Both the position numbers and the translations under genes were made by a program. A DNA stretch of 64,000 nucleotides from Oculina patagonica (Eukaryota): NCBI RefSeq assembly GCF_052425735.1, contig NC_135759.1, forward strand, positions 13,144,001 through 13,208,000, in the 5' to 3' direction. Shown piece by piece: positions 1 to 6,058 of this stretch. The stretch's first letter is position 1; the number at the start of each line of letters is the position of its first letter. The notes under the pieces were generated by a model. That model was not told the origin of the DNA. It did no database searches and saw nothing but the letters and a program-made list of their open reading frames with translations.

Positions 1-1
1 G

Positions 2-58
2 GGGGCAAAGGGCGTCACCGGTAGTTACAACCGACGTCCAGCCCCGTGGGAAGTATGA
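2..58 (+). CDS. C-terminal end of an upstream Polinton ORF (partial, ...GAKGVTGSYNRRPAPWEV*)
   Basis: Open frame from base 2 to TGA at 56-58, which overlaps the ATG at 55-57 of the next ORF. Confidence 0.45.
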   Translation, partial: GAKGVTGSYNRRPAPWEV

Positions 59-390
59 ATCGATTACGTCGACAGCGTCCGTTCTTGGAGAGCATTCTGA
101 GAGAAGCCAATCGGTTCAAGCGAGAAGAGATGTTACAGCACGCCAACGCCGATCAGATCAACGCCGTGAGTGAGATGGTATTGAATTTGCTCAAGAACCG
201 CATTCCGCTCAGTCCACCGATCACTGCCAAGCTGCGACGATATAAGAAGGTCTTGCGCGAACTGGGTAAGCGCAGAAACTCGTTGAAGAGAAGGCGAGAA
301 GGTCTCCTGTCACAGAAGGGTAGTGGGTTTTGGAAAGGACTGCAACAGATCTACCAAGCATGTCTCTGCAAAACACCCTCCAGACAATGA
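55..390 (+). CDS. Small basic Polinton protein (probable virion core protein) with a QKGSG|F putative viral protease cleavage motif
   Basis: ATG at 55. The pattern 'AVSEMVLNLLKNRIPL...LRELGK...RRREGLLSQKGSGF' resembles small conserved Polinton ORFs (recognised from memory). R/K-rich. Confidence 0.65.
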   Translation: MNRLRRQRPFLESILREANRFKREEMLQHANADQINAVSEMVLNLLKNRIPLSPPITAKLRRYKKVLRELGKRRNSLKRRREGLLSQKGSGFWKGLQQIYQACLCKTPSRQ

Positions 391-722
391 TGAAAATGTT
401 ACGCGAATCGGCGGACAGAGAAGCAGAGTGGGAAAAGAGAGCAGACCATTGGCACAAAGCCTACGCCCGCGTCAATCATGACTATTTGGCTTTAAAATAC
501 GACGCAGAGTGCGAAGATTGCATTCGAGAGAGGCAAGAGACTCCGGAAGGAAAGACCCTAGTACTGTGCCAGGAGTGTAGCGACAAGTGTACATCGAGAA
601 GCGACTTGAAAAGGCGCCTAGACAAGTTAGAAGAGGAAGTTCGTTACTGGCAAGGGTGTTACGAAAGCTTGTTGGAAGAATACTTCAAAGATGACCGAGG
701 AAGTCGTGATGGTTCCCGCTAA
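387..722 (+). CDS. Polinton hypothetical coiled-coil protein with CxxC...CxxC (possible Zn-binding) motifs
   Basis: ATG at 387 overlaps the previous stop (ATGA). CEDC and CQEC motifs flanked by heptad-like helices. Confidence 0.6.
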   Translation: MMKMLRESADREAEWEKRADHWHKAYARVNHDYLALKYDAECEDCIRERQETPEGKTLVLCQECSDKCTSRSDLKRRLDKLEEEVRYWQGCYESLLEEYFKDDRGSRDGSR

Positions 723-1290
723 AGACTTGAATCGTTTGGTGCAATATTACAAAGGCGAAATCACGGACAATGCATTGTTGAACAAAGCGGCTCGCATAGC
801 AGCCGAAAGTCACTTGCTGTTAAAAGATAAATCCGTTCCCGACGGTATCGCCGTGGCACGAGTGAAACCTCTCGCTCGCGAACGGGCTCGTTTGACCAAA
901 CGGATACGTCAATTTCCCATGGGAGGAGTAACAGCCAGACGGCCGGGCGAAGAAGCGGAGGAGGAGGAGGAGGAGTTGGAGAATGTGGGTTTGGTGACGG
1001 GACCCGTGGAGACCATGTTGAAACAACTCATAAAAGGAAGTGCCAAGAAATCACCTCCCACAGTCACCCCGAGGGCGACAAAGAAAGCAAAGACGGCACC
1101 TGCGGGCAAACCGACATTGGCAGAGAGATTCAAGAGTTTAGAAGAGAAACTAAAGACGAGGAAAAAGCCAGCTGTGCGGAAAACGGAAGCCGAGAAACTG
1201 AAACCATTACCCGGTTGGGAAGATTGGGCCAAAGGCAAAAAGTTGAGACGAAAATTGGAGTATGACGAAGACCAAGAAGAAGAGGACTGA
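691..1290 (+). CDS. Polinton hypothetical protein, 199 aa, with an acidic tract and basic C-terminus ending KPLPGWEDWA
   Basis: Long ORF. The C-terminal motif LKPLPGWEDWA is conserved in the element B fragment at 2596-2697. Confidence 0.7.
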   Translation: MTEEVVMVPAKDLNRLVQYYKGEITDNALLNKAARIAAESHLLLKDKSVPDGIAVARVKPLARERARLTKRIRQFPMGGVTARRPGEEAEEEEEELENVGLVTGPVETMLKQLIKGSAKKSPPTVTPRATKKAKTAPAGKPTLAERFKSLEEKLKTRKKPAVRKTEAEKLKPLPGWEDWAKGKKLRRKLEYDEDQEEED

Positions 1291-1627
1291 AAAAAAGACG
1301 ACACGGCGACGACAACGCGGACGTGGGATCGACATTCAGAAGTGGCTCGGCAAGACTGGAATCGAATTTCACTGGCCCGGTTATCAGTACATGGGTCCCG
1401 GAACCAAATTGGCCAAGCGATTGAAACGCGGGGACCCGGGCATCAATCGATTAGACAAGATCGCCAAACAGCACGACATCGATTACAGTCACGCCAAGAA
1501 TCTAAGGGACAAGTGGAAAGCCGACGAGAAAATGATTAAAGCCATCAACAAATTACCTGGAAGTAAAACCATGACGGAACGCATTGTCAAACGAATCATG
1601 CAAGCCAAGAAAATGTTGAAACTTTAA
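1262..1627 (+). CDS. Parvovirus VP1u-type phospholipase A2 (Polinton/adintovirus PLA2X), copy A
   Basis: HWPGYQYMGPG (YxGxG Ca2+ loop) and DxxAxxHDxxY catalytic motif (DKIAKQHDIDY). Basic N-terminus followed by QRGRG. Confidence 0.9.
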   Translation: MTKTKKKRTEKKTTRRRQRGRGIDIQKWLGKTGIEFHWPGYQYMGPGTKLAKRLKRGDPGINRLDKIAKQHDIDYSHAKNLRDKWKADEKMIKAINKLPGSKTMTERIVKRIMQAKKMLKL

Positions 1628-1884
1628 TGTTGTAACTTTGAACACATTAAAGAACAGGTTGAACGTTTACATGGTGTACATCGCATTCGATCGCCGACTC
1701 GTTCCCAGAACACCCGAGAAAAGGGGATACCCCCATCCCCCCTCCCTCACGTGATTTTTTTAAAAAAATAGCTTTACGTTTTCTCAGAATCGCCGACCCA
1801 AATTCTTTGAAAAACATGGCAATTTGTGGACAATATATAATGGATGGTGGTCTTGCTAACTCACTATGAAGTGTGAGTGTATCG

Positions 1885-2011
1885 CGAATATCGAATATCG
1901 AAAATCGAATATCGAATATGGAATATCGAAAATCGAATATCGAGTATCGAGTATCGAATATCGAGTATCGAGTATCGAATGTCGAGTATCGAGTATCGAG
2001 TATCGAATATC
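1885..2011. repeat. 7-bp tandem repeat (CGAATAT/CGAGTAT)n, about 18 copies, in the Polinton subterminal region
   Basis: Directly visible: ...aatatcgaatatcgaaaatcg...agtatcgagtatcg... Confidence 0.95.
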
Positions 2012-2030
2012 GGAGGACTTTGATGACGTA

Positions 2031-2400
2031 GGTCCCTAAGGGACCACGTGGTCGATATCTGGGTTCACCATGTTGAATAAATTAAAAGTAAAGCCGCCAT
2101 CTTGAATACATTAAGTGATGACGTAGGAGGGTTTGGTCACGTGGGTCCCTAAGGGACCACGTGGTCGATATCCGGGCTCACCATGTTGAATAAATTAAAA
2201 GTAAAGCCGCCATCTTGAATACATTAAGTGATGACGTAGGAGGGTTTGGTCACGTGGGTCCCTAAGGGACCACGTGACCCATATCCGGGCTCACCATGTT
2301 GAATAAATTAAAAGTAAAGCCGCCATCTTGAATTCATTAAGTGATGACGTAGGAGGGGTTGGTCACGTGGGTCCCTAAGGGATCACGTGGTCTATATCCG
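2031..2400. repeat. 113-bp tandem repeat, about 3.3 copies, rich in TF motifs and containing a palindrome
   Basis: GGTCCCTAAGGG recurs at 2031, 2144, 2257 and 2370. Full units contain E-boxes (CACGTG), a YY1-like GCCGCCATCTT and a CRE-like TGATGACGTA. Confidence 0.95.
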
Positions 2401-2404
2401 GACC

Positions 2405-2530
2405 TGTGATTGGTTCACTGCCATAATCCTGCAATCTGATTGGCTACTGCCGATACCCTTTTCGCGCATTTTATGCAAATTAGGTTACTTCCGGTCTTTT
2501 CACTTCCGGTCCAACTCGGATGACGTCATC
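2405..2530. promoter_or_regulatory. Terminal enhancer/origin-like motif cluster of Polinton A
   Basis: ATTGG (CCAAT) at 2409 and 2439, E2F-type TTTCGCGC at 2460, octamer ATGCAAAT at 2473, ETS ACTTCCGG at 2487 and 2502, CRE TGACGTCA at 2521. Confidence 0.6.
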
Positions 2531-2595
2531 CCTCATTATATATGCAACATGAAAGCGAGGTTTTAGGATCTATGTTAACCCATAAGACTACTACT

Positions 2596-2697
2596 ACGAG
2601 AGGAAAGCGACCGACCGAAGTAGAGACCTTGAAACCGTTACCAGGCTGGGAAGACTGGGCCGAAGGGCGACGCACCAGACGCAGACATGTCCAGTAA
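2596..2697 (+). pseudogene. 5'-interrupted homolog of the 691-1290 ORF (TRGKRPTEVETLKPLPGWEDWAEGRRTRRRHVQ*)
   Basis: Translation aligns to TEAEKLKPLPGWEDWAKGKK of ORF 691-1290. Homology begins right after the ACTACTACT terminus of A. Confidence 0.75.
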
Positions 2698-3088
2698 GAA
2701 ACGTAAAACAACGCGAAAAAAGACGAGACTTCCCAAGATCAGGAAGGAGTGGTTGAACCGCAAAATATGGACCCAGGCAGGAGGAAAAGTCGACATACAA
2801 AAACTGTTGGCCAAGACGGGAGTAGAATTTCACTGGCCTGGTTATCAATACATGGGACCCGGAACAAAACTAGAAAAGCGATTGAAACGAGGTGATCCCG
2901 GCATAAACAGGTTGGACCGTTTGGCTAAACAGCACGACATTGACTACGGAAAGGCTCGCTCTTTAGAACAGAAGTGGAAGGCAGACCGCAAGATGATCAA
3001 GGCCATCGACAAGTTACCGGGCAAAAAGACCAAGACTGAACGCATTGTTAAACGCATCATGCAAGCCAAGACAAAATTGAAACTTTAA
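2687..3088 (+). CDS. Parvovirus VP1u-type phospholipase A2 (PLA2X), copy B
   Basis: HWPGYQYMGPG and AKQHDIDY motifs. Clearly paralogous to 1262-1627 with many synonymous differences. Basic N-terminus followed by QAGG. Confidence 0.9.
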   Translation: MSSKKRKTTRKKTRLPKIRKEWLNRKIWTQAGGKVDIQKLLAKTGVEFHWPGYQYMGPGTKLEKRLKRGDPGINRLDRLAKQHDIDYGKARSLEQKWKADRKMIKAIDKLPGKKTKTERIVKRIMQAKTKLKL

Positions 3089-3220
3089 AAAAATCACACT
3101 TTTAATTCTTTTCGTTGTTTACAAGTAATAAAAAACACAAACTGCTTCACCATTGTCTCACTTGTTTTATCTTCCTCTAAGTGAACGCAAACCTATTTTA
3201 AATAAAAAAAAGACAACATG

Positions 3221-3227
3221 AAAAAAA
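3221..3227 (-). terminator. RNA polymerase III terminator (T7) for the tRNA-like gene
   Basis: AAAAAAA on + directly abuts the discriminator base. Confidence 0.75.
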
Positions 3228-3299
3228 GCCCCCAGCGAGGAGTCGAACCCCGATTGCCTACTTTAGTGGTAGGAGTGATAACCGTTACACTACCGGAGG
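3228..3299 (-). tRNA. tRNA-like Pol III gene, anticodon CUA (amber), non-canonical A33, inside Polinton B
   Basis: Minus strand reads CCTCCGG TA GTGT AACGGTTA TCAC T CCTAC CACTAAA GTAGG CAAT CGGGG TTCGACT CCTCG CTGGGGG C. This gives a 7-bp acceptor stem, D-arm with GG, perfect 5-bp anticodon stem, 7-nt loop and TTCGA T-loop, with A/B boxes and a T7 run immediately after. Confidence 0.85.
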
Positions 3300-6058
3300 T
3301 TGTTATACTACCCGCGTCGTTGTGGTTGGTTTTGAGCTGGCGCGCGCACGCGCAGAGGGTTGTGACGTCATCGCCTTGGAGTCACGTGACCTTTTTTCCC
3401 TTTGCCCGATTTTCCCACCCCAAATTTCCGCTGGGGGTCTGGGGCGAGCTCTTTTTGGCCGCCGGGGCCTGGAACCCACACTCGGACACCCTGGGACCCA
3501 CTCTTATGACGTCATCCACATCCTACTCACGTGATTTTCTCCTCTACGCATGCGCAGAAATACTGCTCTGTGATTGGCTGCTTCCGAATTTAAGCGGACC
3601 TTACTACTAATAAAGTCATTACAGCAAAACTCGTCACTTTTGTGTCGATAACCTCTAAACCCGCATGAGTGTGGCTATGCTACCGAAAAACTTCTTTGGT
3701 TGGTATTATCTTATTCCCCTTTTTCGTTTCTTTCAATGTTTTTCTGATTCGTTTCCTTTCCAGTGACAGAGTTCTACTTCTGCTGTTATAGTACATTTTT
3801 TTCGGAACCAGTCTATCTTTGCAGGGGAGGTATCGTCCCTGTAAACGTTTTGAACCATCTCCAGGCGCGGTTCTGGTTATCTTTTTAGGAAGGTTTCTGA
3901 AATGATGGTTTCTCTCTTCTACAAATATGACTGTTTGTTATTCTGCAAGTCTTATCTCTTTCTTTTGAATCAACCTCACGTTTTTATAGCGGAACCTCAC
4001 TTGACGATCACTTAATTGTTATCAACCATTTTGGCAGCGAGTTAGTAGTCAGATTAATAAACTTCTGCTGTACTTTTTTTCATTTCTTTTAACCGTGTCA
4101 AGGGAACTCCCTGTTTTGTGTAACTGCTGACGATTCCCGCTGGAGATCAATGTGCACACACAGCCTAACCCAGAGACAAAGTGACGATCGACTACTTGGA
4201 ATGGAGGAATGCAAAAGTCCGTTTGGAACTTACGACATCAAGATTCCTGTGGACTCAAAGCTCTCATGCACTGGGAATTCCTGGATCCTAGGAAAGAACT
4301 GCAAGGACTTAGAGGTAATTTGAAGTTCTTGTCTATAAAGTGATAAGTGAGAGACAGGGCGTTTGCCATTTGTATCCAACGATTCATCCCAACGTAATTT
4401 TCGGAAAAAAGGTAATATCTTCCTAGGTATTTCCTTTTTCTCACCGGAACGACAAAATTTCTATACCATTTGTTCGCATAACAAGGCTCCTTATATTGTT
4501 GGGAAGATTGCAGAATCACGTGCTACATAGTTTGAGCTTACACGTGATAACTCTCCTACCTAACCCGCCTTATTTTGTAGGTATTACATAAAAGGGAGGG
4601 GTGTATCACCGCTCTTGATACTTATCGTTTGGTCTGTATAGGAAAGAAGACGAAAATGCACATATAATGCGTAACCAAGTTTTGTTTGGCTGTACTCTTC
4701 TAAAACAAACCCTTTCTTATCACAGCTTACCAAGTTCACCCAAATGAATGTATGGGCTTACTTCTTCTATTGGTCGGACCAGTACCCATCGGGACCAGAC
4801 GACCGCATATGCAGGGTCCCAAGACAGCGAAGGGCACATATTAACAGGCATTACTGATCATGAGTGTTCTGTTACTTAATAATCAGTTTCAAAAGTAAAT
4901 CAATAAAAGATTAAATGGACTGGTTATTCAACTATTGATTTCTGTAGAACATAAACAGCGAAAACAATGAAATAAAATGCAAACAAAATTTTAGACCAGA
5001 GTAGATCAAATGTTTATAATGTATTAAGCTCAGGGTTGGTAGGGATGGTCTTTTACATGCGAAACCATGCAAGCTGCTGCTAAACTGTGAGCTGACTTTG
5101 TGCATTACAAAGAATGACTGAGAACGGCCTGATAGCATTCAGAATGTGGCGTACGAAAGCCCCTTGTACTTGCCCAGTTTAGTTGAGACCTAAAAGGCTC
5201 GCTTCGCTCGCTTATTCACTGTGAAAACTCGTGAGGTCGAATTGTGGCAAGTCTAGGTCCTTGTCAGTATTCGTTGCAGATGCGGTAGTGCTCACAAGAG
5301 CTGTATTTTTTTTTACAAAAAATTCTCCCAGGACATGTTTGGTTGGTTTGGACGATAAACTGACCCCATATAATAAAAAGTCATAACATTATAGGTTTTC
5401 CCTTGCTATACGATTACAGCTTTATCATGAAAAACAAAATTGCTTCTGTAGCTAGAAGAAAGATATAATGAAGAAAAATTATTTCTAAGAATATTTTAAA
5501 TCACCAAAAATCTGAACAAGTATTAAACTGCATAAAGACAATAGCAGTTTTTTTCGTAATTTTGTTATATAGCCGGAATTTTTCCCCCCAACAGCGCGCG
5601 GGCGCTCTCATAGGTTACTTTGAGGTCACATAACATCTAATAACAAAACTCTTTCAAAAAAAATGCTCCCCGCCAAAAGTCTCTAAGTGGGCAATATTTC
5701 AAAATCTCTGACGTCAGAGGGTAACAGTGCACTGTTATCCGCGAATGTTGACCACAGTTGCACGTGAATCTTCGGGAAACCAAATAGTTTTGTTTCCTCA
5801 GCTCCGCCTGAGGAAACGTCGAGATTTTTCGGGAAACAAAATTAACTGTTTCCCTCGGAACCAGTCATTACTTTAAGTGTAAAATATTTTAGCCGTAAAT
5901 TGTTATCTGTATAAAACTCAAAACAATGAAACGTGACATGGGCAACCTCCGGCTTGTTTTCTTCTTGTATGAAGGCAGACAATCCAAAGACCTTATAGCC
6001 GGAGAATAGCCATAGTCTATCATAGAGTACAAACTATTTGAATCAAGAATCTCTCTCG

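Follow-up and report, generated by a model that had tools for sequence, protein, structure and literature searches.

What is a tRNA-like gene with an amber (CUA) anticodon doing in the end of a mobile element of the stony coral Oculina patagonica? The gene lies near the beginning of the 64-kb stretch of DNA analysed here (the window), and its carrier is a Polinton/adintovirus element. Polintons are presumed kin of adenoviruses and have been described almost only by their proteins.

The carrier is one element of about 18.5 kb (G000:C2, about 13,129,061-13,147,608), the right end of which occupies positions 1-3608 of the window. Its terminal inverted repeats (TIRs) end in AGT repeats and are bounded by a 6-bp target-site duplication (TSD), a hallmark of Polintons. 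The following parts of it and of its border fall within the window:

55..1290, plus strand: three Polinton ORFs (111, 120 and 199 aa) 5' of the PLA2X gene, common to sibling elements
1262..1627, plus strand: core PLA2X gene (PF08398), final gene of the late cassette
1500..3608, no strand: right TIR, 2109 bp, ending in ACTACT, 99.9% identical to the left TIR
1857..2401, no strand: 7-bp tandem array and three 113-bp repeats within the TIR
2687..3088, plus strand: second PLA2-like (PLA2X) gene (PF08398), inside the TIR and convergent with the tRNA-like gene
3609..3614, no strand: 6-bp target-site duplication AATAAA

A layout of the window with two Polintons was rejected, as positions 1-3608 belong to a single element with a matching left TIR. 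The initial annotation had placed the gene 310-380 bp inside the terminus of a "Polinton B"; the distance stands, with the gene starting 309 bp from the terminus at 3608, and the separate Polinton B does not. Besides the two PLA2-like genes, the carrier encodes an rve integrase (PF00665) with a chromodomain, and its polymerase, a putative protein-primed PolB, consists of a 166-aa N-terminal remnant only, being whole in siblings (PF03175). The putative capsid, protease and ATPase gave no match in Pfam or the PDB, and these labels rest on size, order and motifs. The closest database protein to the putative capsid, at 99%, is labelled Oculina patagonica at NCBI. PLA2X has been described as a trait of Alpha-class virion modules (PMC8502044). 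Just upstream of the window (L032:6855-7559) lie three small basic genes (73, 68 and 67 aa) with GG-type cleavage-like motifs, which probably encode core proteins. The observed/expected CpG ratio is 1.1 in 1500-3608 and the element core versus 0.76 in the host flank, and this lack of CpG decay fits a recent insertion. Further along the window (49650-54794), 76-bp perfect inverted repeats enclose ORFs of 435 and 623 aa, in what is probably an intact DNA transposon.

The tRNA-like gene itself has the following features, the A and B boxes being assigned by their consensus:

3228..3299, minus strand: tRNA-like gene with a tRNA-Gln-type body, CUA allele, pointing inward from the terminus (ARAGORN, Rfam)
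3282..3292, minus strand: A box (positions 8-19), the same in the CUA and CUG alleles
3262..3268, minus strand: anticodon loop C32-A33-C34-U35-A36-A37-A38, with the anticodon at 3266-3264
3240..3248, minus strand: B box (positions 53-61)
3221..3227, minus strand: T7 run, putative Pol III terminator

The 72-nt minus-strand cloverleaf first seen by eye is borne out by ARAGORN, the check proposed with it, which reports the gene at 3299-3228 (minus strand, anticodon cta) as the sole tRNA of the 64-kb window, and by Rfam, which scores it at 40.8 bits against the tRNA model RF00005 (gathering 29; E 1.1e-6) and gives no match other than tRNA at E<=1. The remaining details of that description, i.e. 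intact A and B boxes, an anticodon stem CCTAC/GTAGG with the loop C-A-CUA-A-A, and T7 directly 3', can all be read at 3299-3221. Its statement that the stems pair holds for 20 of 21 pairs (three of them G-U) and breaks down at U13-U22. The GG and TTC loop motifs and the conserved D- and T-loop bases are present, and the cloverleaf is the lowest-energy fold, with a stability not higher than that of shuffled sequences (z -0.63).

ARAGORN's label of tRNA-Pyl, which arises from the CUA anticodon alone, was discarded: tRNA-Pyl has a 6-bp anticodon stem and a 3-nt variable loop and lacks the GG/TTC loop motifs, whereas this gene has a 5-bp anticodon stem, a 4-nt variable loop and both motifs. No SINE body, tail or TSD of its own was found at the gene, in agreement with its description as a stand-alone gene; a tRNA-derived SINE was ruled out on these grounds and because 32/32 genomic matches lie in Polinton ends. 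Searches for a bacterial, archaeal or phage origin gave no match.

How widely, and in what form, is the gene distributed? BLAST returned 32 genomic matches, and a D-arm pattern exactly the same 32. Fifteen inverted pairs with a spacing of 15-20 kb and 2 single copies make up 17 loci, each of which (17/17) has a capsid match beside or between the gene copies. All 32 lie in Polinton/adintovirus TIRs and none is a dispersed SINE, so that the BLAST check suggested at the outset favours a Polinton gene over a SINE or host pseudogene; the gene is found at both ends of an element because it lies inside the TIR. A decayed CUG-type TIR relic, with a gene lacking the B box (L102, G000:C12:14.73 Mb), was found by pattern only, missed by BLAST, and stands outside these counts. 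The anticodon fared differently. Its conservation among copies, the second check, fails across the family, with CUA in 7/32 and CUG (Gln) in 25/32 (30 copies were read, 7 CUA and 23 CUG, and the other two were typed as CUG by score and pattern). The two alleles share 61/72 bases, and their flanks do not align. Three of the seven anticodon-loop bases differ between them, and 3 of the 4 affected pairs remain paired. The CUG allele has the loop bases G33, G36 and G38, a possible C32-G38 pair, a G1-A72 mismatch and U73. Position 33 is A or G at 30/30 loci read, U33 being absent from both alleles. The amber anticodon thus represents a single allele within a wider tRNA cargo and is not the main story.

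The carrier family is young, with capsid genes that differ at 6-16 of 1404 bases. Among the 29 elements with a capsid identity of at least 97%, the gene is present in 16 and absent from 13, and 10 show no Pol III unit in the scanned sequence; in a 17th gene carrier the capsid match is partial. Most of the polymerase gene is missing from all three elements that have CUA at both ends. The TIRs are modular and recombine freely, as seen in two places (TSDs were examined for 4 of 14 TIR pairs). On C10 (G000:C10:13.927-13.948 Mb; L012, L001), one TSD encloses a CUG-type and a CUA-type TIR, around a frameshifted capsid gene. At L049:2074-3784, in a window-type TIR, 1.7 kb of other sequence begins exactly at what would be the first base of the gene; this insert holds a decayed polymerase-like piece and is present at both ends of a polymerase-less element.

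Variation among the copies points to constraint. In the CUG copies (n=23), 0/73 sites segregate in the gene versus 35/228 in the flanks (p 4e-5), and in the CUA copies (n=7) 0/73 versus 17/246 (p 0.016), with the caveat that the copies are related and that TIRs homogenise. The CUA-type test leans on the upstream flank, since the 125 bases downstream are nearly invariant too. The 51 positions outside the boxes are also invariant (p 7.5e-4). Sequencing runs, 4 of the 12 listed being aligned to the TIR, show CUG-type letters in 4/4 and CUA-type contigs with diverged TIRs in three (X1, X3 and X10); no RNA run containing the sequence is among those listed, which carries no information on expression. 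The X1 contig has 65 changes and 12 gaps over 2716-3577. Among its changes listed, which extend up to position 3408 (an unlisted position is not proof of identity), one falls in the gene, where C replaces U3 so that a G-U pair becomes G-C, versus 31 per 248 bases in the flanks (9/139 downstream and 22/109 upstream; p 0.003 pooled, 0.17 downstream alone). Judged by these comparisons, the gene is under constraint over its whole 73 nt, and the initial picture of a Polinton-borne, tRNA-Gln-like, Pol III-type gene under constraint is supported by an invariant gene between drifting flanks.

The likely parent is host tRNA-Gln. The gene is identical to it at 44-47 of 72 positions, the best value among the ordinary host tRNAs sampled, compared with 35 of 72 for host tRNA-His, and none of the sampled host tRNAs is closer than 47. 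The likeness to tRNA-Gln noted earlier, in the D arm and the 4-nt variable loop, holds for the 5' strand of the D stem and for that loop, and extends to length, A15-U48, U26/C44 and, in the common (CUG) allele only, the anticodon of host tRNA-Gln(CUG). In contrast, the acceptor, anticodon and T stems have been rebuilt in the Polinton gene, which also lacks U33. Host tRNA-Gln has G1-C72 and U73, versus C1-G72/C73 in the CUA allele and G1-A72/U73 in the CUG allele; the atypical acceptor stem, C73 and A33 that had drawn attention are thus genuine departures from it. At 10 of the 21 pairs both bases depart from those of host tRNA-Gln, and yet the pairing is retained. An alignment of seven sequences has 96.6% of its cells paired; since several isotypes are combined in it, this figure exaggerates the selection acting within the virus. 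The parentage is short of proven, because one non-canonical host tRNA-like sequence (L113) ties with tRNA-Gln at 47 of 72 and because several host isotypes (Asp, Glu, Pro, Cys, Leu, Phe, Trp, Tyr) fall outside the sample; the genome-wide Rfam search scored 63 of 53,253 candidates and is not a host tRNA census. L113 belongs to a set of multi-copy host tRNA-like sequences (L111-L114), which have a D arm of the Val/Asp type and an unusual loop containing AGT, and which match the gene at 43-47 of 72.

Do other Polintons carry comparable units? In other TIR types of this genome there is a second, unrelated A/B-box unit, outward-facing, with a T run and poorly paired stems, which is presumably Asp/Gly-like given its triplet:

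L042:4091-4171, minus strand: second A/B-box unit with a GTC or GCC triplet; also in L221, L048, L053 and L059

It is present at both ends of two elements and at the one end read of two more, and one of the latter two has a capsid only 53% identical. In L053 the unit is split by an insertion. A relaxed A/B-box scan gave 2 matches, compared with 1.3 for shuffled sequence, and failed to recover two known units; its matches therefore count only through their mutual likeness. In ten more distant Polinton loci of the same genome (20 stretches, 200 kb) ARAGORN gave two matches, both SINE-like and lacking a T run; the TIR pair could be placed for 4/10 of these loci, and the other six are not a fair negative.

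Among metagenome loci with capsid relatives (the best 80 of 305, 49-75% identity), tRNA genes occur in 14/80, and in 8/19 of those of at least 10 kb; the loci come from few assemblies and are not independent. Rfam confirmed tRNA genes in 13/13 of the loci scanned, L214 being outside that scan. The genes lie between core genes (L156, L194, L210, L213, L215), behind the capsid or protease gene where the contig is short (L172, L211, L218), within either a terminus recognised by eye or an inverted repeat (L142, with five genes, and L214), or next to the outermost viral genes of contigs without a terminus (L143, L160, L186, L195). Some are ordinary-looking and have intact loops of the His, Arg, Trp, Leu, Met and Val types, which shows that the clade does include decoding tRNAs. 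Seven of the loci (L172, L194, L210, L211, L213, L215, L218) share a tRNA-like family behind capsid/protease genes, in which the acceptor, D and T stems are 99% paired, the anticodon arm is free and the length ranges from 75 to 87 nt; there are no two-sided stem changes, so that the pairing represents conservation and not covariation. Two further loci have a UCA (opal) anticodon, in genes with poorly paired D and anticodon stems:

L143:10978-11049, plus strand: tRNA-like gene with a UCA (opal) anticodon
L214:155-228, minus strand: second tRNA-like gene with anticodon UCA (opal), within an inverted repeat formed by the ends of the contig

Several individual loci deserve mention. The L211 family member folds with z -3.8. 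In L142 (2128-2684), five tRNA genes, each with a T run, lie in the left end of a Polinton with its terminus at about 1395: Leu-TAA, a degenerate Arg-like gene, a Trp-like body with a short arm and a TGA anticodon, Trp-CCA and His-GTG. TTA and TCA usage in L142 is above that of the Polinton family; L214 is equal in TTA, and no such tRNA was found there. At L160:11640-12138, a PLA2X remnant lies beside a convergent tRNA-Val and a cut-off Trp-like gene, a layout as in the window TIR. A search of IMG/VR found no relatives of the element.

What might such a gene be for? Its location in the TIR, its two alleles, intact fold and boxes, constraint, optional presence and recurrence are observed. Our preferred reading, with a probability of roughly 0.5, is that it specifies a Pol III-transcribed tRNA mimic kept for its fold. 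An old derivative of tRNA-Gln(CUG), carried as optional TIR cargo by a young coral Polinton/adintovirus family, would be transcribed from both ends by host TFIIIC and Pol III; transcription would stop at the T run, and the RNA would be trimmed like a tRNA. In the weakest step of the scheme, the RNA would be kept for its shape rather than its codon. An abundant mimic may then occupy tRNA-recognising host proteins (antiviral nucleases, stress kinases, La-type binders), analogous to the presumed role of gammaherpesvirus vtRNAs and adenovirus VA RNAs, and CUA would be a tolerated anticodon change and not a viral read-through device. In favour of a mimic, all 32 matches sit in Polinton ends, the gene is invariant within each allele, its non-box positions included, 3 of the 4 pairs affected by the allelic differences remain paired, both alleles lack U33, an unrelated A/B-box unit occupies other TIRs, and the vtRNAs of murine gammaherpesvirus 68 function without being charged (PMC4337559); the relatives with free anticodon arms further support the mimic already considered in the initial annotation. 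Against it, each allele keeps its anticodon loop invariant, though a pure mimic need not do so; relatives have ordinary-looking decoding tRNAs; purine 33 is tolerated in yeast tRNA-Gln; the seven-locus family lacks covariation; and 10/29 near-identical elements show no Pol III unit in the sequence scanned.

The host genome has five Schlafen AlbA_2 matches, four of them on C1 and C2 and the fifth in a long frame, SAMD9-like by its architecture:

L230:1886-5881, minus strand: host 1331-aa frame with AlbA_2 and STAND NTPase

These are candidate tRNA-cleaving proteins that make the decoy idea testable, with no link drawn to the gene. Overall, the data suggest that these elements make tRNA-like RNAs of their own, which are more likely mimics than stop-codon suppressors; the competing readings rank behind the mimic in the order in which they are taken here.

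The first of these, which we consider possible but clearly less probable, is that the CUG allele adds a functional and perhaps nuclease-resistant tRNA-Gln to the host pool, CUA being a later change, mainly in polymerase-less copies. A Gln anticodon sits on a Gln-type body in 25/32 copies, relatives carry ordinary-looking tRNAs, and the polymerase gene is largely missing from 3/3 elements that bear CUA at both ends. There is a precedent in the cleavage-resistant tRNA of phage T5 (PMC11464382), and purine 33 is no bar to decoding, because in yeast tRNA-Gln(CUG) U33G is like the wild type and U33A a weaker allele (PMC3664417). The G1-A72 mismatch, G38 and the acceptor stem remodelled relative to host tRNA-Gln speak against such a function, as does a host that already has at least 36 tRNA-Gln motif matches. 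CAG accounts for 44% of Gln codons in four core genes, which indicates no special demand for Gln(CUG). A drifted CUA, moreover, sits uneasily with its retention in the diverged TIRs of runs X1, X3 and X10.

Somewhat less probable again is a role at the level of DNA only, in which a TFIIIC/Pol III site near the element ends acts as a chromatin barrier, or as a roadblock to read-through from the convergent late genes, and the RNA is a by-product. The position in the TIR flanks the element on both sides, and two unrelated A/B-box units occur in TIRs in opposite orientations, the Asp-like one retaining boxes and T run without stems; a cis effect of the promoter has also been raised for murine gammaherpesvirus 68 (MHV68) (PMC4337559). 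An insulator alone, as proposed in the initial annotation, fails to explain why 51 non-box positions are invariant, and it is further opposed by the 10/21 pairs changed on both sides relative to host tRNA-Gln and still paired, and by the many relatives whose tRNAs lie between core genes and not at ends.

The reading that the anticodon itself invites, an amber suppressor, we regard as unlikely. The remark that no stop is TAG is correct for the window and incorrect for the element, in which the 21 genes tallied end in TAG (2), TAA (8) or TGA (11). The two TAG-ending genes are the putative major capsid gene and the 73-aa basic gene; the polymerase gene ends in TAG in 2/3 sibling copies read and in TGA in the third. 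No conserved in-frame TAG read-through target was found in the element. Read-through of the capsid stop meets a TGA at once in 4/4 copies, and that of the polymerase would add 19 aa and 3 aa in two siblings, extensions that are not conserved. Beyond the stop of the 73-aa gene, read-through would run out of frame through the next gene, and most of the full-length homologs in related loci have a TGA stop; a conserved TAG-split frame (73+73 aa) was rejected here, since the small basic gene and the gene behind it are in different frames. The suppressor idea is thus weakened, the CUA of the window gene being real but present in 7/32 copies only and without a viral target. What is left is a charged, weak suppressor, selected on host UAG stops or nonsense-mediated decay, host stops being indicated because the virus shows no target of its own. 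CUA is identical in 7/7 genomic copies, three runs retain it next to flanks that have diverged, two related loci (L143, L214) have UCA anticodons, and a yeast tRNA-Gln with a CUA anticodon reads UAG strongly, with U33A tolerated (PMC3664417). Yet CUA is a minority allele on near-identical gene cores, 13/29 near-identical elements do without the gene, A33, C73 and C1-G72 differ from host tRNA-Gln, read-through of the capsid, polymerase and 73-aa genes yields nothing conserved, and the D and anticodon stems pair poorly in the relatives' UCA genes. A bolder version, equally doubtful, is that coral Polintons run a tRNA programme of their own, in which the CUA gene would be a natural, charged and deliberately weak amber suppressor of an animal DNA virus; if so, the CUA gene and the UCA genes of relatives would form a stop-reading viral tRNA set that blunts host termination or nonsense-mediated decay.

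A neutral passenger, i.e. a host tRNA or SINE head that was captured and then multiplied as TIRs were copied, could account for a gene absent from 13/29 near-identical elements in a young family with freely recombining TIR modules, but it is largely refuted by the lack of any copy outside Polinton ends, by a distance at which no sampled host tRNA is closer than 47 of 72, and by conservation far above that of the flanks at three depths, and is very improbable.

If tRNA/Pol III genes were acquired recurrently and independently, animal Polintons would have a non-coding arm like the VA RNAs and vtRNAs, and such cargo would suggest that tRNA is contested ground in the antiviral defence of corals. 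A comparison is provided by nature within the family, as near-identical gene cores come with the CUG gene, the CUA gene, the Asp-like unit or none.

The tRNA-like gene is real and conserved, and for animal Polintons it has apparently not been described before. The main texts on coral polintoviruses (PMC11131425), vertebrate Mavericks (PMC8097293) and nematode Polintons (PMC10748475) and that of a 2026 framework for Polinton-like viruses (PLVs) (10.64898/2026.06.19.733378) contain no mention of tRNA, and the accessible part of a virus-wide tRNA survey, with one tRNA in 7 of 97 adenovirus genomes, never names Polintons (PMC6409571). We found no report of tRNA genes in animal Polintons, although genome maps in the adintovirus and coral supplements, Repbase or subscription papers may already flag them.

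The gene resembles adenovirus VA RNA genes in being an internal A/B-box Pol III gene of a linear dsDNA virus, in this case one related to Polintons. VA RNAs have a decoy role and a fold of about 160 nt, unlike the true 72-nt cloverleaf of the Polinton gene, and identity with VA RNA was rejected, tRNA being the only Rfam match. The TMER/vtRNA genes of MHV68 are likewise tRNA-like, of the Pol III type with A and B boxes, and lie close to one end of the genome in a DNA virus of animals, and their vtRNAs are described as uncharged yet functional (PMC4337559). In contrast to TMERs, the Polinton gene has no 3' pre-miRNA hairpin, T7 following at once (the fold of the sequence downstream is no more stable than that of shuffles, z 0.03 and -0.24), and it is optional, with one gene per TIR and two anticodon alleles. 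Protist PLVs, virophages and MELD viruses, of the same broad kin, also bear tRNA genes on mid-size linear dsDNA elements: 558 tRNAs are predicted in a protist PLV/virophage set (PMC12220804), and tRNAs are flagged in non-animal MELD viruses in a figure legend (Fig. 6; PMC8502044), these reports being predictions read as codon compensation. The present case differs in its animal, integrase-bearing Polinton carrier, its location in the TIR, its non-canonical position 33 and its stop-anticodon allele. Finally, phage T5 counters PARIS with a cleavage-resistant tRNA-Lys that has an altered anticodon stem-loop (PMC11464382). The Polinton gene is similarly virus-borne and altered in its anticodon stem-loop; unlike phage anti-defence tRNAs, which decode, it has one allele with a stop anticodon, and decoding by it is only putative. 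With these differences, the Polinton tRNA-like gene is a variant of a known viral strategy.
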